A stretch of 57,913 nt of DNA, counting the filler, from Dimargaris cristalligena (taxonomy: Eukaryota), in NCBI GenBank assembly GCA_003614675.1. It is 3 parts of 3 records of this genome, joined end to end, with 100 filler letters (N's around TTAATTAATTAA, not from the genome) between each part and the next. Parts side by side here need not be neighbours in the genome. Positions count along the whole stretch, not along the records: positions 38,694 to 57,913 come from ML002734.1; 2 more parts are not named here. One strand, written 5' to 3'. The notes under the pieces were generated by a model, which was not told where the DNA came from, searched no databases, and saw only the letters and a program-made list of their open reading frames with translations. The first letter of the stretch is position 1, and each line of letters begins with the position of its first letter. The translations under genes were made by a program, and so were the position numbers. Below, piece by piece: positions 13,447 through 57,913 of the stretch.

Positions 13447-14013
13447 ATGAAGGTCAACGTGATCGTGTTTACTGTCGCTCTTGCCGCCATGGTGGCAACT
13501 CCAGTACTCACAGCCCCACTAGATAAGCTGCTCGACAATGTCATTTGCGTAAACGCAAAGCTTCTTAACGACCATCCTTCCGACTTCAATCCCTGTGCCG
13601 GGTCCGGCAATACACGCCCCGATAACGGCAACGGTAATGGTGGCAACGGCAATGGCAACGGTGGTGGCAATGGCAATGGCGGAGGTAACGGCAACGGTGG
13701 TGGAGACGGTAACGGGGGTGGCAACGGTAATGGTGGCGGTAACGACAACGGTGGCGGCAATGGTGGCAGCGGCAACGGTGGTGGAGACGGTAACGGGGGT
13801 GGCAACGGTAATGGTGGTGGTAACGACAACGGCGGCGGCAATGGTGGTAACGGTAACGGAAATGGCGGTGGCGGTGGCAATGGAAACGGCAATGGCGGTA
13901 ACGGTGGTGGCAAGGGCGGTGGTCGCAATAACAACGGCGGCAAAGGCAAGGGTGGTAAAGGCAACGGCGGAAAGGAAGGACGGCCCCATGGCGACCAAGC
14001 TGTCGACTATTAG
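13447..14013 (+). CDS. Secreted Gly/Asn-rich low-complexity protein (188 aa)
   Basis: Signal-peptide-like N-terminus MKVNVIVFTVALAAMVATPVLTA, a short domain with two Cys, a long (GGN/GNG)n tract and a basic GK-rich tail. Confidence 0.85.
   Translation: MKVNVIVFTVALAAMVATPVLTAPLDKLLDNVICVNAKLLNDHPSDFNPCAGSGNTRPDNGNGNGGNGNGNGGGNGNGGGNGNGGGDGNGGGNGNGGGNDNGGGNGGSGNGGGDGNGGGNGNGGGNDNGGGNGGNGNGNGGGGGNGNGNGGNGGGKGGGRNNNGGKGKGGKGNGGKEGRPHGDQAVDY
13621..13970 (+). repeat. Coding GGC/GGT/AAC triplet repeat tract with an internal ~80-bp duplication
   Basis: GGCAACGGTGGTGGAGACGGTAACGGGGGTGGCAACGGTAATGGTGG occurs at about 13690 and again at about 13771. Confidence 0.85.
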
Positions 14014-19450: not shown

Positions 19451-22400
19451 CCCCGGGATTGCTCTCTGCCAGTCCCGCTGGGCCATTTAATGACCGCCCA
19501 ACCGGCAACACGCCCGATCCGAAGTCGGGATCGGCTCTCCGACTTCTAATCCAGCTTACCCAGCCGCCACTTCTGTTCCGTAAAAACGAGGCCCAGGCCG
19601 AGCGGGACCATCGTCGGTGGCACCGCATGGACATATGGGAGCGTGTTACGGGGGTTGCGCTTGATTCGACCCAAGAGCCGGGACCACTAGAGCCTGTCAC
19701 TGCCGGTTTGGAACGAAGTGGTACCAACTTTGGGCACTGGCTGGTCTACCATTTGGTGGCGGTTACATGCGAGCCAATGAAGATGCCCACCGCTACTCCC
19801 CAGCCCTCGTTGGTCACCGACAATGCTCCAAGAATGGCACCACTAGTTGCCCCGGATTCCCGGGAGGCCCTAGAGGAACTATGGCTGAATAATCAGAAGG
19901 CCATCCAGCTACTACGGCAGCCCCACCGATTCATTGGTTGGCAATTCCGGCAGGCCAAACGCTACCCCCGCCTACTTGCCCACAGTCAGCACCGAGCGCT
20001 TCGGCTTGCTGATTTAGGAGCCACCAGACTGCATTTCGAGGTCCATTATATGCTGGAGTCTCTAGTGTCCCATGGTATTTTATCCGAGTATAACTTAACG
20101 ACCGATTTCCTGGATGAGCTCGCCCGGCTGCCGGCGGCCACCGCCTGTCGGGCCCTTCAATTTTTATTTGGCCAGCAGGGCCGTATTTACCAACCCCTTC
20201 GGGAATTACAGACGATTGAGAAAATGATGCCCAGCGATAGCGCCTCCTCCGGGACCGCCGCCGCTAGTTCTTCTTCCGCCCCGTCAGCCTCTACCGAAAA
20301 TGGTTCCCATCGGCAACCCCAGAGCCCTACCACGCCGATATTTGCCTTCATTTCCCCCTCAACCAACCACAGTGTGATGATCCCCAAAGTGATCGTGACC
20401 CCAACCCGGGTGTATCTCTTACCGCCGACCGTGGAGAGCTCCAACCGCGTACTGCGGCACTACGCCCACCTCAAAGATCGGTTCCTTCGCGTCAGTTTCC
20501 GGGATGAGCGATTCAATCGGCTAGATAGCAACCCCGTTCAGCTTAGTAGTATCTATAGTCGGGTTTACCGGGCCCTCCGCCACGGTATACAGCTCTCCGG
20601 ACGGCACTACGAGTTTCTGGCGTTTTCAGCGAGCCAGCTGCGTAACCATAGCTGTTGGTTCTTCGCCCCCGAGCAGGCCTCTCGTGCTGAGAACCACCAT
20701 CCTAATGACCCTTTGACCCACGGTAGCCCAGTGACGGCGTCGGATATCCGCCAATGGATGGGCCACTTCATGGGGATCGCCAATGTCGCCAAGGCGGCGG
20801 CCCGTATGGGGCAGTGTTTCTCTACCACCACGGCGGTGTGCTCCCTTCCCGTGGACAACGTTTACCGCCTGGAGGATGTCTCCCAGGGCAAGTATGTATT
20901 TTCGGACGGAGTGGGCCAAGTCTCGCCGGCGTTGATGGCTTTGGTGGCCCGACAACAGGGGTTTGACCGCCCCCCCAGCGCCATTCAATTCCGGTTCGGC
21001 GGACACAAGGGGGTCTTGGCACTGGCGCCTCCCACACCGAATATGAACGACCAAGTGCACGCCATTGCGCTGCGACCCAGCCAAGAGAAGTTCCCCTGCG
21101 AACATCGCGTGCTCGAAATTGTACAGCCAGCGATTTTCACCCCCTGTACACTAAACCGGCAGTTGATTCTGCTGTTGGCCACACTGGGGGTTCCCGACTC
21201 CACCTTCCTTCGGCTCCAGAATGTGGCCGTGAAGGTGTTCCGGGACCTGCAGCACCACGCGGACGTAGCCATGCAGTTCCTCAAGTGCCAAGGTGGCGAT
21301 GCCCCATTCGTCCGGTGGGCCATACCCGCGATTGATACGGGCTTCTTCCGCCTGTGTGACCCATTCCTCGTATCCAGCCTACAATGCTTCAGCTCGGGGT
21401 GTCTCAAGGCGCTCCAGGAGAGGGCACGCATCCCCATTGACAAAGGGGCTAAACTCATGGGTGTTGTCGACGAGCTCGGTTTGCTGCAGCCCAACGAGAT
21501 CTTCGTGCGGTACTCGGATCCGCAATCCCCCGATAACAAACAGGTTGTAACTGGCCTTTGTGTGATTGGCCGTAACCCCTGCTTCCACCCTGGTGACGTA
21601 CGGGTTGTCAAAGCAGTCGACCACCCCCAGCTGCACTTTCTTACTGATGTAGTGGTATTTTCCCGCCTCGGCGAAAGGGATTTACCCAGTCAACTCTGCG
21701 GTGGAGACCTTGACGGTGACTTTTATTCGGTGATTTGGGATCCTTGCTTGGTGCCCACTAAAGCCTTCATGAACCCTGTCCCGCCTATGGATTACAGCGC
21801 ACCCCCGCCCCCTGCTGAGCCAGGCATGGTCATAGCGAATGGCAACACCGATGCCCGCGTAAAAAACGGGGGCGAATCGGCCAACTTGCCCCCGCCTCCG
21901 ACCGCCGAACAGAACTTGGCCCTGGCCCTACGGGATATGCAGCGGTTCTTCCTCAGCTATATTGTTAGCGATAACCTAGGCCAAATCGCCAATGCCCACC
22001 TGATACGTGCCGACCGGTCCCCCAATTTGGCCAAACACCCCGACTGTATCCGTTTAGCCGAGCTGCACTCGCTGGCGGTGGATTTCCCCAAGTCAGGTGT
22101 GCCCGCCGAAATGCCCAGCTATCTCCGACCCTTCGAGTACCCCGATTTTATGGCTAAACCCGATAAAACGCCCTACCGTTCGATCAGTGTACTCGGTAAA
22201 CTCTTCCGGGCCGTGCGCTGGTCCCCCGACGAGGACTTCATGCAGGTTGATGTATCCCCCCCACCCGCCGCCTCGACACCTGCTACGCCACCGAAAGTCT
22301 CACCGTCGACCACCTTGGTTGCCTCCCCTAAAGCGGAAATAGCAGCTCCACAGCCTCTGGTAGAGCTAACGGTACAGGTCGCACAGGTGGGTGATTTACC

Positions 22401-23616
22401 ACCCCCGTCTAGTTCACCGATTTCTAGCTCGTGTCAGACTTTACCACCGCCTTCAGTGTCGACAACGCCCCCATCCACATCAGCATCGACAGCAATGCCT
22501 ACCGACGATTCCCGCAAAACTGCTCATAAAAAGCGTCCGCTATTGAGCACCCAGGTCAACACGCTCCTGCAAGAACTGGTTGGCCCCGATTTTGTCCATT
22601 ATGTAGTAAACGCCCGGCAAATCCGGAAATACTACAACCAAACCCTGGCTACTATGCTGCGCCAGTACGGGATCCGCACCGAACAGGAATTGGTCGGAGT
22701 GATGCCCCTCCAATACTCCCATCTGGTCCTACAAAAGTCGCACGAATTCAAGGAAACCTTGAAGGGGGTGGTTAAACAGTTTCAGGCCGAATTTGAGGAG
22801 CTGTTTTTCGCGGAGTTTGGGTCGGATTCCCGGATGTTGTTCCGGCGATTTAACAAGTTGCCCTGGACAACGGCCTGTTTACTTTCACGCGATGTGCCGG
22901 TAGACCTTTTCACCGATGCCTCAACCAAAGCCCATAGTGATAGTGGATCAGTCGAAGCCGACAAGGCCAAAGCTGACGAGCCTCAGGCGGTAGCATCCAG
23001 CAGTGATGCATCTGCCGAACCATCGACGAACCCCTTACCACAACCGCTGTCCACCCGTAAAACGCTGGATACCATTACGCTTGCCCGGATCCGAGCTAAG
23101 GCCATGGCCTGGTACTATGTAACGTACCACCCCCTAGAGCGCTATGGCTCAAAATGTACCAAACACGACCACTTAGCCCGGGCTCTCCAACAGGCCGGGA
23201 TTAGGCTGCCCCCGAAACCGGACCAAGCCGAGCATAAACACTTTATATCATTTCCCTGGTGTGTCCCCGACGTACTGACTTATACGCTTAAATGGCGTCT
23301 GGCCATGAAACCGGGTCGGCGGGAGTCGGCTAACTTGCCTGCACCACATCCAACGGTCCCAGCAGGATTGGAGGGCGCTTCGATCACCACGGATGTTTCA
23401 GTTCAGCCGACCACTACTAATACCACTACACCCGAGTCCCTCGCTCTCAAAAATGAAGCTGCTCAGTATGCGGAGGTTGGAATTAAGCAGCCGTTAGAGC
23501 CGGTTAATATGGCCGCTCCTCAGCTTAACAAGATTGGAACAGATACTATACCCGCCATTGGTGGTGATTTTGATGATGGGCTTGGGGCCCTGTTAGCATT
23601 GGTGAATGATTTGTAG
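19451..23616 (+). CDS. Cellular RNA-dependent RNA polymerase of the RNA-silencing (RDR/SAD-1/QDE-1) family, 5'-truncated
   Basis: Motifs SNRVLRHY, FLRVSFRDE, FLAFSASQLR, ARMGQCFS, FSDGVG, SAIQFRFGGHKG, RNPCFHPGD, catalytic GGDLDGD and AVDFPKSG. The frame is open from 19444; a likely CTAAC..TTAG acceptor ends at 19450. Confidence 0.96.
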
Positions 23617-36523: not shown

Positions 36524-38551
36524 ATGACTGACGTTCGCAAGGCCGCTCTCCTAGGTGCCGTCCAGCGCCCCGCCCGCACCGTCTCCTTCCCCAAGGTGGA
36601 CGGTAAGGCCGTGTACCCCTCCGAGCTCTTTAACGAGATGGTATTCACTACCAAGGATATCTCCAAGGCCCTCCCCAAGCCCCTCTTCGGTGAGTTCATG
36701 AAGCAGAAGCGCGGTCACCAGATCCTGTCCAAGGCTACCGCCGACGCTATCGCCCACGCCGTCCGGGTCTGGGCCATGGACCGGGGTGCCACCCACTTCA
36801 CCCACTGGTTCCAGCCCCAGACTGACTCGACCGCCGAGAAGCACGACTCTTTCCTCACATTCCAAAGCACTCCCGGTGGTGAGGTAAGTTCATATATATT
36901 CCCCCATTACAACTTTCTTTGTTGGCATTGCTTCTAATTATCCTGCTATATAGTGGCCATGTGGTTGATCCATTCCTCCCCGTCCATTGTAAAGTTCGTA
37001 TGCTTGCCCTCCCGAGTCGAGTCGCTGACAGATTGAGCTTCTCTTTCTGTCTCATCTGGCAATCCTCTCAGCCTCCCTCAGCCGAGGTTCCGGCTCCCCC
37101 CTCCCGCTTATCTGTTCCGGGTCCTTAACGCGCCACTTTGCTGGATTGGGGTGGGGTGGGGTCTAATGCTGGCTATTTTCAGCTGCCCCCTGGCCCAAGC
37201 CGGCGAGAGAGACCCTAGTGGGTTTCACTGGGTTCCGATTCCACCCCATCCAATAAAAGGACTGCTTTCCCCGCGCGCCCGGGTCTCCTGGTTGGCGTAG
37301 AGTGTGACGTGGGGGAAGCGTGAGGGGACGGAGATACGGTGGCTGAAGGGACTAATGGCCGAGTCGGATTAAATTGGATCGGATTGGGTTATCTTTTTTT
37401 CTGTCTGCCCCCCATTAATTTTAAGGGAGAGGAGGGTTGGTGTAATTCCCCCCAATATTGGTGGTGGGCTGAGTAGTGTGGGAATGGTGGTGGTCATCGA
37501 TTTTAATTTAGCATCGATTACATGACAAGCCTACCCAACCCAACCCGACTATTCGCCTGCTCCACTTATACTATACCCAATATTTCCATGACCAATAACT
37601 GCGGCACATTCTCTAACCCACCCACTTATATTTATATTTGCCATGCCTTCCTTAACTGCATTTATTGGCCAAATACCCACTCCCTCCGAACACTCAACAG
37701 TACTCTGCCATCGACGCCTTCTCCGGCTCCCAGCTGCTCCAGTCCGAGCCCGATGCCTCCAGCTTCCCCTCCGGTGGTATGCGGAGTACCTTCGAGGCCC
37801 GTGGCTACACTGTCTGGGATACCTCCAGCCCCATGTTCATCCAGCAGGGCCCCAACGGCACCAAGATCCTGTATATTCCCTCCGTGTTCATCTCCTACAA
37901 CGGTGAGGCTCTGGACGAGAAGACCCCCCTGCTCCGCTCCTGCGCTGCTGTCTCCAAGGCCTCCGTCGAACTGTTGGCCCTCATCTCCCCCCGTTCTCTG
38001 ACCTCCCAGACCCCTACCGCCCAGGTCACCACCACTCTGGGTACCGAACAGGAGTTCTTCCTGATTGACCGCAGCATGTACTCTCTGCGTCCCGATCTCA
38101 AGATCTGCGGCCGTACTCTCCTCGGTAACCTTCCCCCTCGTCACCAGCAGATGGAGGACCACTACTTCGGTAACATCCCCTCCCGCGTGCTGTCCGTCAT
38201 GAGCGAGATGGAACTTGAGCTCTACAAGCTGGGTGTCCCCCTCAAGACCCGTCACAACGAAGTCGCCCCCGCCCAGTTCGAGGTGGCTCCCATCTTCGAG
38301 GAGGCTGCCGTCGCGGTTGACCACAACCTGCTGACCATGGAGGTCCTGCACAAGGTGGCCCACCGTCACGGCCTCAAGGCCCTCTTCCACGAGAAGCCCT
38401 TCAAGGGTGTCAACGGATCCGGTAAGCACTGCAACTGGTCCCTTAGCACCGACCGCGGCGAGAATCTGCTGGACCCTACCGTCAAGCCTGAGACCAACTA
38501 CCGCTTCCTGCTCTTCCTGGTGGCTGTCCTGGACGCCGTCCACAAGCACGC
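36524..38551 (+). CDS. Type III glutamine synthetase (GSIII), 3'-truncated; exons 36524-36883 and 37701->38551
   Basis: GSIII-specific motifs ATHFTHWFQP, AEKHDSF, EPDASSFPSGGMRSTFEARGYTVWD, GTEQEFFL, HNEVAPAQFE, HEKPFKGVNGSGKH. 817-nt GT-AG intron in phase 0. Confidence 0.96.
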
Positions 38552-38592
38552 GGGAGGGGATGTTACCGAAGTAGTGGTCCTCCATCTGCTGG
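38545..38592 (-). other. Inverted copy of 38144-38191 at the contig end (probable amplification/assembly chimera)
   Basis: Exact 48-bp reverse complement, joined through what appears to be a short microhomology (AGCACGC). Confidence 0.9.
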
Positions 38593-48355: not shown

Positions 48356-49044
48356 TTAGGTGAGCCGATTGGCCTGGCTTGGACCAGCCAGTCGAACTCC
48401 CCGCGCCATTCGCACACTTAAATGATGTCACTATCCCACTGGGCTAGGGCATCAGTGAATATCGGATGATATCAGGCAAAGGAGATGGTGGCTCCCCCTG
48501 GGTTTACTAAAGAGTGGCATTTAGATGTGCGGGCTCCCGTTGGCCCAGAGTAATAACTAACTACTACTGATGGAGACTACTTTGATACCGCCACTAACAT
48601 TAGAGGGGGGGTATGTGGCACACACTCACCACACAGAGATTATAAGATATTCTTGTTATTTTTACCATAATACTGATGGTAACTCCAAGACCAGTCTGAA
48701 CAGATTACCAACTACTATTATGCCAGCCAAAAAGTCTAATTAACGAAAGATGATCGGCGATACCGAGTAACTATGGCATGGGTAACTCGCCATAAGCCAC
48801 TATTGCAGAGTCTTTAGCACCTATATTATTAAATTTGAACCAGGCGACCTAAACACCAAGGCCATTTACCAACTAGTACAACTAGGAATCAAGAGGCGAC
48901 TGGAGGGATTAGCAATGCAGAACAAGCAAGGCCCTTTTTTTATATTGGCTAATATCCACTTATACAGTTAACCTTTTTTCCCACTTTGGCGTATTTACTT
49001 CCTCTTTGGAAACCGCATTCTCATAACCACTTCCTACCCATTGA

Positions 49045-50760
<1,716 letters not shown>

Positions 50761-51090
50761 GCGGGCCATGTCACACTCCCTTATAGTGGACCGGGCAATT
50801 CCTAATTCGACCGACTCGACATTGTTTTATTATACCCTAGAAGACATACCTTTCGACTGATTAGGCCAAGTCAATGTCCCTTTTTTGTTTTACCTCCATT
50901 TATTCAATGATCGATACCATAATAAACTATAAAGCAGGATCCATGTAATATTTTATTTGGGCAAATCATATAATTATATACATCTGCAAAACAAAATGGG
51001 TTTCATTGATCAGTAAGGGTACGGTACATCCTTATCAGGATATATGTGCTATATATATATATATATAACCCCTCATAATAAGCGGAAGGG

Positions 51091-52062
51091 CTAGAGAGTA
51101 CACCCGAGTAGAATGTTGTCGATCAATCGAGCACTACCTACCCGGAAGGCCCCTGATATAATAGCGCCATCCTCACCGATTTGCTCCAGCTCGTCCAGGG
51201 TTTCCGGGTGAGCCAAGCTGAGGTATTCCAACTGGGCGTCCGGCTGGTCATCAAACACGCGCTGGGCGGCGCCCAAAAGGGCTTCCCGGTTCCGTTCACC
51301 CTGTTGCTCGTACAGGGCTTGCGCTGCGGCCAGACTCCGTTGGAGAGTCAAAGCGGCAGGTATTTGGTCGGGACTTAAGTATTTATTCCGACTACTCAGG
51401 GCCAGCTGGTTAGCCGCGCGCGTGGTGGGAACAGTCACGATTTCCACGGGCAGCAAGAGGTCCCGTACCATGGTTTTGACCACCACGCACTGCTGGGCGT
51501 CCTTTTGGCCGAAATAGGCCCGGTCGGGTTGGACCGCATTGAGCAGTTTTAACACCACGGTGGCCACCCCCCGGAAGAAATGCGGACGGGGATCACCTTC
51601 CATTTGGTGCGACTTACCCAGGACTTCGAGAAAGGTGCCCCGTTGGGCCTGCACGTCCAGGGTAATCCCGCTGGGGTACATTTCGGCGACGGTGGGGGCG
51701 AAGACCACATGGGCCGAAGCCGACGCTGAGACGGAAGCGGGGGAATCCGTTGATCCCGCCGTCGCGGACGGGGGTGGCGATGGTGGTGGTGAACTAAGTA
51801 GGGCCACGTCGCGGTCTAGCGTGCGTGGGTAGGCGTGTAAGTCCTCGTGGGGGGCGAACTGGGCCGGATTCACGAAAATACTCACCACCACCCGGTCGCA
51901 CGACGAGCGGGCTGCGCGCACTAGGTTCAGGTGGCCCTCATGGAGGGCACCCATGGTGGGCACGAAACCAATCGTCCGGCCCTGGAGGACTTGCTCCCGG
52001 CGCCAGGCGCGCAACTCAGCGATACGGTGGAACACCAGAACGGGAGAGCCAGTAGTGGACAT
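51091..52062 (-). CDS. PAN6: Pantoate--beta-alanine ligase (pantothenate synthetase)
   Basis: GFVPTMGALHEGH, SIFVNPAQF, RPHFFRGVATVV, FGQKDAQQ, LALSSRN, RLIDN. Confidence 0.97.
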   Translation of the reverse strand: MSTTGSPVLVFHRIAELRAWRREQVLQGRTIGFVPTMGALHEGHLNLVRAARSSCDRVVVSIFVNPAQFAPHEDLHAYPRTLDRDVALLSSPPPSPPPSATAGSTDSPASVSASASAHVVFAPTVAEMYPSGITLDVQAQRGTFLEVLGKSHQMEGDPRPHFFRGVATVVLKLLNAVQPDRAYFGQKDAQQCVVVKTMVRDLLLPVEIVTVPTTRAANQLALSSRNKYLSPDQIPAALTLQRSLAAAQALYEQQGERNREALLGAAQRVFDDQPDAQLEYLSLAHPETLDELEQIGEDGAIISGAFRVGSARLIDNILLGCTL

Positions 52063-53658
52063 GGTTGGTACCGCTCGTTACAGGCAATAGCTTGGGAAAA
52101 GGGAGGTAAGGGGAAAGAGTATTGCGACAAAAGATTGCCCCACCGGCCGAAGTGACGGTGTTATGAAACGGGATTAAAACTTGGGTTACAAACGAATGAG
52201 GAGGGTGCCGTGTGGAGGAGGTCTGCGCCACATTTCAGGTATTGCTGACTTAACAGAACTTTCAGCATGGTCCTCCTCATTCAACAAAAATGGGTAGTGC
52301 GACCCAACTGGACTACCCTATTCAGGTTACGCCACTTCCACCCCCCTCTTTCCCCAAGTTAGTCCCCACAGGGGGGGGGGCACCTTAATTGGGGAGTAGT
52401 GGGTATTGGTTTCCTATAAGCGAGCATAGGCGCAAAGGGGGCTGCCCAAATATCTTTTACGCTAGCCAAAGGGGCTTAAGAGGTGGATACTACGACATGA
52501 TTTGTCGACAATGTACACTATCCCAGACTAAGCTAAGGCCCCGGTGATGCCAAACACCGTTCCATGAAAGCTTGTGCGAGTGAGTAGTCTTCATACCGTT
52601 ATAGCTTGCAGTCATAGATTTCAATCTACGGACCCTTACTAAATTCTCTGGGTGCCAGATATCTGCATTGGAACCCATGAAATAGAGCCCTAAACCTGCA
52701 TCTTTCATTTAATAAGCTAGCACGGATGGATACCTGGCCAATTCCACAAGTGAAGATGATTTAAGGGTGATTGGAATGGGTGGTACAATCACAAATATCA
52801 CATCCCCAAGGGCAATGGCGATACCCCTTATGCCCAAATAGCTATGGCCCCACAGACTGCTATCCACATTTGTGTAAATTGCTTCAGCTATAAGTTTTAA
52901 AACAACCATGTTTCATTAGTATCCAAATCGTGGGGCCAAAACCATACCCACAAAGGCGGGCTGCAGAATATCTTTATAAACCACCTCACTCTGAACATCC
53001 CATTGGACAACTTAGTTGATAAAGAGTTATACAATGGTTAACCTAATAAATAGGGGGCCTTCTTGAGCTACCAGAGGAGTGGGGGACCTGGATATTTGCG
53101 TAGGTTAGCCAATGGAGTAGATCACTAGATGCAGCAGCAATACTTGACCAGTTGGCCTATTCCAAGGTGCAGTAGGAAGACATGGTAATAATAAGGGTAG
53201 GAGATATCACCAACCAGATACACATCACCCAGTTGAGCACTGCCATTGTGTAATAATTACATTGGCTTTAACTACCTTAACCTAGTGTCAGGGACTCTGG
53301 CTAATGGTTGAGCCCTAAACTCAAGCTAAAATCAAGTAGTGAGGTAACTACAATAACAATCCATGGCACTTCCTACTGTTAAACCAAAATACTATACTAT
53401 ATGTAAATTAGATCACAGACATTTTACTCTTATTAAAGTGTATTCTTGGGGATGTAAAAAAGAGGAGGGTAAGGCAGTGGGGCTGAAGACCTAGAAAAGC
53501 AGCCTTGTGGAGTATGATGTACAGTGTATATAAAGTCATCTACACTCAAGGCCTAGTGAGTCAGAGGTACTGATAGTTAGGGGTATTGCCACCAATGGGC
53601 CTACAGTGACTGCAGGGATATGATACATTCCCTGCTATTATTTGTAAGGGTTCTTGGA

Positions 53659-53910
53659 TCAGGTTTTCAAGTGTGCAGTCATAGCAGTAGACATGGCCAT
53701 GTATTCACAATAGGGACAAATCTGTTGTTTTGGTGAGGGGGCTTTTCCATGGTGAACAAGGTGGGGGTGGTGGGTATGGCTTGTGGAAGAGGATGAGACA
53801 ATAATATCACCATGAAGTGTGTCTGAACCCCCAGAGTGAGCTTGGCAGTCCTGTACTGATTTCAATGCCACAACAGTAATAATAGCAAGGGCAAAGGTGG
53901 GAAGTTGCAT
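53659..53910 (-). pseudogene. Small secreted-protein gene, probably degraded by CpG transitions
   Basis: ATG at 53910, signal peptide MQLPTFALAIITVVALKSVQDCQA, TATAAAAA at 54055-54048; lies inside a CpG-free tract. Pseudogene status is inferred. Confidence 0.5.
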
Positions 53911-56900
53911 GGTAGGTAGGGTGAGTGGGATGACAGAAAGAGTGTGGGGGTACTCACTGGTGGTCAGTAAGGTCAGATAAAAAGAGAGAGGCTTGCTATT
54001 GACTATTAGGTGGGCTACCATTCATAGGATTAGAGACTGGCTGTTGCTTTTTATAGCTTAGAGACCTCCACCATATGGCTTAAATATTTCAGCTTAGTGA
54101 ACTAAGTAAGCCAAGGCAGCTTGGACTGACTATTCACTCGCAGTCTGTATTATGCTGGAGTCAGGACTAGCCGGAGGTTGCTGAGCAAACTACATGAAAT
54201 GGGGTGTACATCCCAACACATATTCAAAAGCCGGATGTTTTACAAAGTGACTGGCAGGGGCTTGGGTCAGTTTAATTCACTGGTATCCAGGCTTGCAGGT
54301 TGTACTTGTGACCCTCTACCACGTGGTTTAGTGGAAGAGAGGCTCAGGAATGTAGTGGTGCTTGTAGCAGCAGCACATGTAATGCCAATTAAAAGAAAAA
54401 ATTAATGGTATTCATCAAAGGAGAAAGAAAGTGAATTCCCATTTCACACTCATTTTCACTGCTTGTTCAACCACACACTGGGAAAAAAGAGATACACTCT
54501 CTCATTTTTTTTGGACATGGCTGTATTATTTCTAGACTTACATGTCCAAAAGCTAATGGGATGCACACGCAAGTATAAAAAAAGGATATGCCATGTTGTA
54601 CCAAGAAAGTGGGATTCCCGTGGACAGTAAGTACATAATATGTATGACTTCTTTAAACTAATGCATACCATAATGACATGTCTACTCGAGACAGCGCCAA
54701 CCCTGTCAACCATTATTGGCATTAACCACTCAGTATCGCCCCAACTGTACCACAGCCGCACATGGTCGGATATCTCTAGCTGAAAATACCATGGAAAAGG
54801 GCTCGAAATTGAAATACTAGTCAGGCAGAAGGCCTTAGGGGAGTGTGCCCATCACCCTTGAAAGAGATATACCCGAATAATTGCAAGTTGGCTGTTCCAT
54901 CTCAACATCCCCCAATCGAGGAAGCCAGGCCCTTGGTGTCTATTCATTTGTAATATCCAAGCCAGCACCACACATGCCTAAAACTCTATCCCATTTAGAT
55001 ATTGCTGGATTGGTCTTCAGAATGAGCTGATTTAAGACATGGCTGGGTTAATGGCAAGCTCAACCATTAACCCAATAGCTATTATTCCAGTTGTATTTGA
55101 TTTTGCTCACTAGCATGATCTAAACCCGCAAATAATAGCGATGTTGGCCCTCCCAGTCCCTGGTTCCCAAAACTTTAAAACTGCTAAAGACCTATCGAAT
55201 AATGGCTACTCGGGATACTATAGTCCTTAGCCACCGGACAGGCCAGTTTGTTTCCTTAAAATCATCCCAACTACGTTGGGTCAATTGGTGGCACCGATTG
55301 GGTTGATTTTCCCACCTGTGCGCCATTTTGTATCATACTCTTGCTTCTGTCGGCATCACATACCGGGGCCTTGCTTGCTTGTGGGTTTTACGGTTCTGAC
55401 AATGGATCGGTTGGTCAGTAGTAGGGCGAATAAGAGGCCGTATTAGCAGCAAGACTTCTTCGGCATCACTTCCACTTCCTTGATTTTGATAGCTACCCAC
55501 GTACCAGCCGAATTGTGCTACCATAAGTCACTAAAAATGTTTCAGTTTCTTCCAACTAAATACCGACAGGCGCCTGCCATGCCTCCCCCATGCGTATTCC
55601 TTTCTGATCAAGCCACCCCTGGTCATTACCCAATGTAGTTAGTGTCACCCACCGGCTCATACATAGGCATACGGAGTCATAAAGCGTACTTACTCCTAGA
55701 CAATCCACTCCTACCAAAAACATTCCTCCCAGTGTCACCATTGAAGAGTAAACTGTGGATGCTGGAGAGCAAGAGATTTCCCCCGGGCATTACTGATCCC
55801 TAAACAGTCGACTGTTGTCAATGGGTTGATCTATATCTAGGAATATCGGAGCGCTATCAAAGTGGTTCATTAAGTCAATACCAGCGAAAAAAACACCAAA
55901 ACCATCCCCAATGAGATTTCCGCCCTATTAGACCGTGAACTAAGCGATATTCTTACTCGTTGAACATAATCATTCTCTTTATGGGGTGGGATTACCTTAC
56001 CTTTATAACTACCTCAGGAAAGAAAGTATGATTACCTTATCTCTTTTTTCTTTTCTTATCTGGACACATACCTAATCCTGTATTGTGTTTAAAAGTCCCC
56101 ATTCAATAATACTGGTACATGGGCCCCAAGAGACCCACCATGCAGCTGCCCCTCCCCCTTTGACAATTTATTTATTCATTCAAGTTGACATGCGTGGTGT
56201 ATCTCCAGTAAATAGAGGATATTCTTAAGAATAGGGATAAGAGACTCAACTATATTCGGCACATTCGATCTCCTGAACCTACGATATCCAATTAGGCAAA
56301 ACATGGTATTCACTACTGGCTACCTAGTAGCGTGTTGTGAATATCCTGAGCCCCCTAGCAACGTCGGGCCAAGGAAACGGGTGTTAGAGCGGCTATCCGG
56401 AAGCTTAGGCTAGCCATTCAATTTCCGAAACACTGAAAGGGCTATTTTGGTCAAGATAGTGATAGTGTTGAGACGATGAATTTGAAGGATAAACGTAAGC
56501 ACTTTCTAATGCAACTTAAAAAAATATAAAAGAGAGAAGGAGTCGCAAGGGGCAAAGCTAGACGCCCGCGGCTAGTTTTAATGATTTAGATAAAAGAAGT
56601 AATCAAGACAAACCAATGTCCCGAGTATGGGATGATGTAACCAATTATACGGAATCAGTGGGACGCGGGAAAAGAAATTCTAATAGATAGCTGATAGTTG
56701 AATTAATTCATGTCACTTAAAGTTATTTACAGAAGGCCACCCAGCTATAATTTTGTTTGTTTTCCCAACAGTAGCCCAATGGCCTCGGTGAATATTTATA
56801 ATCCCCAGGAGGACATTTTGAAGAAGCTATATCGTGTTTCTCATCTCTGGTTAGTACCAATGGCTTTACCTGTGGACTACGTAGAAATATGACTTCTACT

Positions 56901-57505
56901 TTAGTTATCTCGTGGCATCACAAATCTAATTGCGTCTTCATATCAGTGCCCCATTTTTTTTGGCGATTTTATAGTCAACATTGGATAGGAAACTACCCAA
57001 CCATTGCATAACGAATGACCGATTTCTCAGAAACATGGACAACTAAACACAGCGACATCTACTTACAAAGGCCAGAGCACATTTAACCAATGTAGGTAAC
57101 ACGCTCCACTGTTAATAGTGCAATCTGTTAGGTCGATGTTGGGGAAATGCCATTAAAAAGGCCAAGATCAACATAGTATTTATACATTATACTCGTGGAA
57201 GCCGCGGCAGCGTCACACGATATACCGAGGAAGAAGTGGGGATATAGTCAAGGGCTTTATTGAGTGCTTCATTGGACGACGGCTAGAAAGGTCCAGACAT
57301 GGGCTACATCTAATTCAGGCGGTATTTAGCCAAGTTCGCCGCATTAAACTTGGCACAGCAAGTGAGCGTCAACAAACTGCGATACATCTTTGGGAGAATA
57401 TAAAAACCCTATTGGCCCGCCACTCAGGTTACAGTATCTTCCCTCCCAGCACCGCTTGCCTCCATCTCAACCAATCCGCCCCTCTCATCCCCACCCACCC
57501 TTACC

Positions 57506-57733
57506 ATGCACTGCCTCTCGTTTACCAAGGTCCTCCTCATCGCGGTCATCGGCATTAGCACTACGGCCCAGGCCGATCCTGCCGCCTTTCCCCAACCTAC
57601 ACCTTATCTCGAGCGCCGGGGAGTTGCCCTTGACGGCCCCAGCCCTGTGTACGAGCATCCCCTAGGTTCAATAGGACTTATAGTAACCGCAGCCAACCCG
57701 CCCCGCGCCCTTCGTACTGCAACCGTGGATTAA
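57506..57733 (+). CDS. Small secreted protein (75 aa) with a dibasic processing site
   Basis: TATAAAA at 57399, pyrimidine-rich leader, signal peptide ending AQA, then YLERR-G. Confidence 0.55.
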   Translation: MHCLSFTKVLLIAVIGISTTAQADPAAFPQPTPYLERRGVALDGPSPVYEHPLGSIGLIVTAANPPRALRTATVD

Positions 57734-57913
57734 TAACCGTAAATGATGGCCATCGCCACACTTTAATTGGCCACCAGAATGGTAAAGGCACGCACTAGTT
57801 ATCTTCACCTTCCGATATTGATACATTTCCATATGTTTTCTGGCATTGACATCTATGACCTTCTCATTTTCCTAAGTTGTCCATATTTATCATTTAGATA
57901 GAACGGGCTCCGT

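Follow-up and report, generated by a model that had tools for sequence, protein, structure and literature searches.

CpG-only mutation signatures in fungal genomes go together with Masc2-type Dnmt1 enzymes and are ascribed to cytosine methylation followed by deamination (PMC4352252). Decaying transposons of Microbotryum, Melampsora, and Puccinia (Masc2/Dnmt1 class IIA) carry such signatures (PMC4352252), and two further papers treat the enzyme classes and deamination (PMC7862722; PMC13297926). The 5-methylcytosine (5mC) of Phycomyces is CG-enriched and repeat-located, is also present on silent genes, and is most abundant on long terminal repeat (LTR) elements; a similar 5mC pattern in Linderina pennispora is cited second-hand in the same paper (PMC11258239). 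The locus described here is a tract of 1038 bases lacking any CG dinucleotide, which covers a decayed gene for a small secreted C2HC zinc-finger protein in Dimargaris cristalligena (assembly GCA_003614675.1). It was analyzed within a stretch of 57,913 nucleotides, herein referred to as the window, which joins three unrelated contigs; the tract belongs to contig C527, 3.8 kb from the contig end. We interpret this tract as a mutational scar of CG-context cytosine methylation, left by 5mC deamination over a broken paralog (probability about 0.72).

The locus resembles the decaying transposons of Microbotryum, Melampsora, and Puccinia in its CpG-only transitions, the DNMT1-type gene with RFD and BAH domains, the lack of any RID found, and the link to repeats. 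It differs in that the loss is complete, extends 1-2 kb into flanks, and lies over a host gene with no transposable element found, as well as in its host lineage, Kickxellomycotina (PMC4352252 for comparison). With Phycomyces blakesleeanus and L. pennispora it shares an early-diverging position and a putative repeat-linked CG methylation; there the marks were measured, whereas in Dimargaris the mutational footprint alone is seen (PMC11258239). The scar is a known kind of footprint and common in this genome, while its transposon-free, gene-centred, CpG-only character sets this domain apart. Repeat-induced point mutation (RIP) of Neurospora, which reportedly leaks into Leptosphaeria maculans effector genes near repeats, is comparable as a repeat defence mutating small secreted-protein genes near repeats. 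At the Dimargaris locus, however, the context is CpG rather than CpA, a high-identity duplicate was spared, and no RID was found. The literature search, with supplements and most subscription papers outside its scope, surfaced no report on methylation or CpG decay in Dimargaris or Kickxellomycotina, or on the secreted zinc-finger family, and the main text of PMC12543289 mentions neither CpG nor Dimargaris.

No CG was found at positions 53101-54138, the tract being bounded by CGs that start at 53099 and 54139, against approximately 46 expected from the 176 C and 271 G of the tract. The second-longest CG gap within the window is 246 bp, and in 10,000 mononucleotide shuffles of the tract the CG count was always at least 23. 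An earlier note on this DNA had described a tract without CG in which C, G, and GC dinucleotides are common and from which CpG returns gradually on both flanks; all of this was borne out, the observed/expected (o/e) ratio for GC being a normal 0.96. CA is enriched (o/e 1.47), as is TG (1.17). Pooled observed/expected CG counts by distance from the gene, in 200-bp steps, are 0/17.8, 3/17.2, 2/17.7, 6/14.9, and 7/21.0, followed by 29/55.1 at 1-1.5 kb and 66/73.1 at 1.5-2 kb. The CpG-free core is thus set, according to this profile, in a wider CpG-poor domain (52600-55200) that is roughly symmetric about the gene.

The gene is duplicated, as had been supposed: protein and DNA searches of the genome found six family loci, namely the window copy, C239, C123, C694, and the broken copies C1165 and C1939, the last assigned by DNA alignment. 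A block of gene plus flanks (53151-55044) is shared with C123, C239, C1939, and partly C1165 at 56-79% identity. None of the 42 C123 CpGs aligned in the tract is kept in the window copy (14 CA, 8 TG, 8 TA, and 12 other), whereas 181 of 479 positions of nine other dinucleotides are kept (p 8e-9), as are 9 of 45 GC dinucleotides (p 0.003). A stricter alignment gave 0/40 CpGs kept with 27 TG, CA, or TA products, and the 8 TA products are about as many as expected from a second hit at the background rate. Outside CpG, C>T changes on the window branch where C123 and C239 agree amount to 7/42 for CpA, 6/40 for CpC, and 5/29 for CpT; with C1939 as the sister, these values are 1/17, 5/22, and 2/16. 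The proposal that the loss is CpG-specific is therefore upheld.

All 10 CpGs of C239 aligned in the tract are also gone from the window copy. Given 163 TG and CA sites and a branch T>C rate of 5-8%, the window branch should have gained 8-13 new CpGs, and none is seen; this estimate is rough and based on small counts (Poisson p 3e-4 to 2e-6). The codons for a dibasic Arg-Arg site decayed differently in the window copy, C239, and C1939. Since these codons differ among copies, the C239 CpGs are gone, and new CpGs are absent, the process appears to have continued to act on the window copy. In the coding regions, observed/expected CG counts are 22/20.5 for C123, 20/23.9 for C694, 5/16.5 for C239, 6/17.2 for C1165, 3/14.1 for C1939, and 0/12.1 for the window copy, so that four of the six loci are CpG-poor.

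A second duplicated block (54957-57913), shared with C1621 and C233, serves as an internal control. Over 57000-57835 (836 bp, 92% identical), C1621 keeps 35 of 43 window CpGs and shows CpA>TpA at 5 of 111 sites. Over 54950-56225, a region adjoining a repeat at the end of the C1621 contig, only 1 of 29 survives (p 2e-11). The CpG loss is regional and copy-specific, and duplication alone is no trigger. When a process like methylation induced premeiotically (MIP) was considered, the gene-centred gradient fitted duplication-triggered methylation; the spared 92% duplicate and the two intact paralogs did not. Two copies of a repeat of about 140 bp are present in C1621 (L053:80-221, 1829-1976), inserted relative to the window. 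This repeat, possibly a miniature inverted-repeat transposable element, was also found in C123, C233, C694, and C1165.

Up to 10 kb from the start of each of 60 contigs were sampled (422 kb in total); these were every 37th contig in order of size, apart from one skipped step, plus the last contig. This sample over-represents contig ends and small contigs. It contains 22 CG-free tracts of at least 500 bp, including 6 of at least 1 kb in 5 of the 60 loci. Gaps of at least 400 bp number 33 for CG; among 12 control dinucleotides, only TA has one, once. Repeat matches were found in 54 of 72 CpG-poor 500-bp windows vs. 54 of 510 CpG-normal ones. The main repeat is a solo LTR of 580 bp whose ends read TG...CA and which has a 5-bp target duplication. 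For 16 of the 22 tracts, a copy of this LTR is present no more than 800 bp away. Four of the other six start within 210 bp of a contig end or reach one; the last two comprise a tract with a weak LTR match (E 0.004) and one in a 2.3-kb contig. Such tracts are not special to this gene; they are common in the genome and mostly lie around one solo LTR. The refuting case named in the earlier note, such tracts being common in single-copy intergenic DNA, did not arise, because they are repeat-linked.

Of 22 LTR copies aligned, 5 were set aside because they were incomplete or wrongly aligned; the LTR profile was built from the other 17 and partly trained on the sampled loci, so detection is not independent of the sample, while the flank gradient is. 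The CpG o/e ratio is 0.13 inside the 580-bp LTR and then, going outward, 0.10 (within 200 bp), 0.16, 0.30 (400-600 bp), 0.48, 0.41, 0.57 (1-1.5 kb), 0.68, 0.79, and 0.82 (beyond 3 kb). The loss reaches 1-2 kb into unmatched flanks and recovery takes 2-3 kb, the same scale as around the window gene. Among 89 open frames of CpG-poor domains, a Pfam search gave one reverse transcriptase match. The C239 paralog has a 580-bp solo LTR (L046:8397-8945) with a 5-bp target duplication, and upstream of this gene copy CpG is almost missing over approximately 2.7 kb. A second element, a 220-bp solo LTR with a 5-bp target duplication, is located in the window at 56466-56685, with TG...TA ends here and TG...CA ends in most copies; one genome search gave 45 matches, most of them on this element. 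This 220-bp repeat was also considered as a shared promoter of secreted genes, which was ruled out by its identity as a solo LTR. CpGs survive in most of its copies, in contrast to the 580-bp family, which suggests that the two families are treated differently; the three copies reduced to 0-1 CG each have a 580-bp LTR no more than 210 bp away.

A search of the genome with the PF00145 profile found two places, C729 and C715. At C729, DNMT1-RFD and BAH domains are accompanied by a DNA_methylase domain, the catalytic one, inside which the contig ends; a methylation enzyme of the DNMT1 type, as anticipated, is thus encoded in this genome. Its closest solved relatives are DNMT1/MET1-type chains (E 9e-39); two chains titled DNA (cytosine-5-)-methyltransferase, which we take to be DIM-2, scored 2e-16. 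The C715 methylase piece looks DNMT2-like. No further methyltransferase paralog, and no RID-like gene among the two candidates, was found in this loose first look at a draft assembly, in which DNMT5, DIM-2, or RID could be missed. On another contig of the window, a gene for a eukaryotic RNA-dependent RNA polymerase is located at 19627-23616 (PF05183, E 5e-180), and because of this gene, RNA interference machinery that could guide methylation appears to be at least partly present.

These observations are consistent with the following scenario. A DNMT1/Masc2-type enzyme would methylate a domain of 2-3 kb, 5mC would deaminate to T, turning each CpG into TpG or CpA, and later-arising CpGs would be removed as well. 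The decay took the dibasic site of the encoded protein, and an unrelated transversion its last zinc ligand, leaving a probably dead copy that methylation may also have silenced. Several points weigh against this interpretation. At the 59% identity of the comparison with C123, alignment is noisy, and some CpGs of C123 are themselves new. At 21 of 25 sites C1939 has TG or CA as the window copy does (p 0.025 vs. 64% with C239, or 14 of 22 sites), and at 9 of 9 so does C1165, although new CpGs on the C123 branch inflate these counts. Inheritance may therefore account for part of the scar. Old LTR copies also lose CpA, which a CG-only enzyme does not explain: C>T rates are 0.36 for CpA, 0.48 for CpG, 0.13 for CpC, and 0.11 for CpT, from two CpG-rich LTR fragments against 13 old copies in pooled, not independent, pairs. 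LTR cores carry this added CpA decay with no counterpart at the window locus. In addition, the C-terminal half of the C729 enzyme was not found in the contigs of the genome, and 5mC is described as scarce in most Mucoromycota and Zoopagomycota (PMC11258239), reviews saying the same of Zoopagomycota and other early-diverging fungi.

The weakest step of the explanation is the seed of the domain. As the gradient centres on the gene and no transposable element was found, the leading candidate for the seed, with odds that are about even, is the duplicated gene itself or the sequence right beside it, which would have been targeted either for being a repeat or for being silent. In the strongest alternative, which differs in the seed alone since the methylation chemistry is common to both, the gene is a bystander and the seed was a now unrecognisable transposon, for instance in 52100-53150, or an ancestral copy lay beside such an element. 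This is possible, though we hold it to be the less probable course. The sampled tracts argue for it, with 16 of 22 near an LTR and four more at contig ends, as do the LTR roughly 45 bp ahead of the start codon (ATG) in the C239 paralog and the TG-or-CA states shared with C1939 and C1165; moreover, 52100-53150 has no homolog for comparison, and a very old transposon relic at the locus is possible. On the other hand, no 580-bp LTR was found in the window (nhmmer --max, E 10), no Pfam match in any of the 12 stop-masked frames, and no repeat or transposon in or beside the tract by genome DNA searches or by blastn against approximately 0.6 Mb. A transition-tolerant search with 52100-53170 found none either, its best score being 110 vs. 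81-100 for shuffles run on fewer targets. CpG climbs rather than drops going into 52100-53100, and the different decay of the Arg-Arg codons and the lack of new CpGs point to action on this copy itself.

A deleted LTR in the gene block was considered and rejected, since no gap exceeds 26 bp relative to C123 or C239; the 226 bp extra in C1939 are also missing from both of these. A polymorphic insertion was rejected as well: in a second sample, all of 49000-57913 is covered by a single contig, over 8,907 bases and with no insertion. This comparison covers one sample, runs X1 and X3, possibly of the source isolate, having been left out. Among the 40 of 240 differences listed, 10 lie in 52100-53752 and 28 in 49000-52099, which speaks against ongoing hypermutation; because these differences are no denser inside the domain than outside, the scar predates the split of the two samples. 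One flank CpG, at 52930, is lost in the second sample.

An enzymatic, homology-triggered C-to-T process of the RIP type, with a CpG preference on duplicated DNA, is improbable. The block is duplicated, four of the six family loci are CpG-poor, old LTR copies show CpA decay, and TpA/ApT in the tract is 1.19, all as such a process would have it. The earlier suggestion of a RIP-like footprint nevertheless failed: the locus has no CpA excess, the 92%-identical 836-bp duplicate was spared at both CpG and CpA, most high-copy 220-bp LTRs keep their CpGs, the loss spreads 1-2 kb into unmatched flanks, and no RID-like gene was among the two candidates. The (CpA+TpG)/(ApC+GpT) ratio of the tract, 1.22, is not low by RIP-index thresholds. 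Chance or compositional bias can be dismissed in view of the shuffles, the control dinucleotides, and the directional paralog evidence, even though AT-rich intergenic DNA of the window has a CpG o/e of only 0.5-0.7.

The gene under the tract is an 83-codon open reading frame (ORF) on the minus strand (53662-53910), whose start at 53910 is indicated by the Met shared with C239, C123, and C694. A probable signal peptide of about 24 residues (53839-53910, minus strand) is suggested by hydropathy only, with the best 11-residue value, 2.95, from residue 6; the N-termini of three paralogs are alike in this respect. A TATAAA box is located at 54050-54055 on the same strand, as are the His codons, the finger, the premature TGA, and the upstream ATG described below. 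The elements listed in the earlier note were all confirmed: the TATA box, the ORF with a hydrophobic N-terminus, the PHLVHHG motif, the TGA, and, seven codons further on, TAA TAG. YLERRG is likewise present in the ORF at 57506. Derivation of PHLVHHG from PRLVRRG holds for the last two His codons (53749-53754, CAC CAT), which align with CGT CGC in C123 and CGC TGT in C239, so the site was lost through separate CpG hits; the first His aligns with Gln in three paralogs and is rejected as a former Arg. The finger (53662-53718) retains C-x2-C-x11-H without the fourth ligand, whose position is taken by the premature TGA (53659-53661). Contrary to its proposed origin from CGA, this codon aligns with TGT, the ligand Cys, in C123 and C239, so it arose by a transversion; the site shows no change in the second isolate among the differences listed. 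An upstream in-frame ATG (54019-54021), which opens a 120-aa ORF, aligns with CG in C123 and C694 and was probably created by CpG decay. In the second sample, 9 bases of the His-rich linker are missing in frame at 53760.

The C123, C239, and C694 proteins share a signal-peptide-like start, a low-complexity linker, and one C-x2-C-x11-H-x3-C finger, which the intronless frame completes in all three; the full LVRRG is present in C123 only. Two of seven candidate database matches show no difference from C123 across the aligned part; these hypothetical proteins are named D. cristalligena, in agreement with the proposed origin of the DNA from an early-diverging fungus. Both models end otherwise than the genomic frame, which we read as predicted splicing. 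Searching 1.84 billion proteins with a profile yielded 116 matches, of which two, both the C123-type protein, extend from the N-terminus through the finger; the remaining ones mostly cover the finger alone, and the family is lineage-restricted. The zf-C2HC_2 domain (PF13913), found in six of seven scanned database matches, has the same ligand pattern; the Dimargaris family differs in its single finger behind a signal peptide and in a Pfam score under the cut-off (14.6 bits vs. 27 for C239). An ESM Atlas search gave a best score of 0.86 to C2H2-type clusters, a lead only. The C694 finger (L051:4791-5123) ends N-H-V-D-G-C, resembling ubiquitin-binding UBZ4 fingers, and gave no match in the Pfam scan. 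Dimargaris parasitises other fungi, and the family may be secreted, cleaved by Kex2, and act as effectors.

Other features of the window include a 75-aa signal-peptide ORF at 57506-57733, the one with YLERRG, which keeps its CpGs, has no Pfam match, points away from the zinc-finger gene, and has a near-identical copy in C1621. A 188-aa signal-peptide ORF with Gly/Asn repeats is located at 13447-14013. A perfect 48-nt inverted copy (38144-38191 and 38545-38592) at the end of contig C526, in a frame that we take to be glutamine-synthetase-like, is probably an assembly artefact.

A further-reaching proposal, which we regard as speculative and rather unlikely, is that Dimargaris methylates its own genes directly: duplicated secreted-protein genes could seed CG methylation without a transposon, through small RNA or homology, decay of dibasic Arg codons would drive copy turnover in the family, and the second, CpA-directed decay of LTR cores, absent from this gene-centred domain, would imply two targeting layers. 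The gain in knowledge is modest, as the chemistry was already known. The locus provides a paralog-based case for CG methylation and deamination shaping a genome of Kickxellomycotina, a group in which, according to reviews, there is little 5mC, and the LTR flanks give a spreading distance, with half recovery approximately 0.7-1 kb from the element. As a rare-looking domain without a transposon, it would be a ready site for testing which features seed methylation in this lineage.

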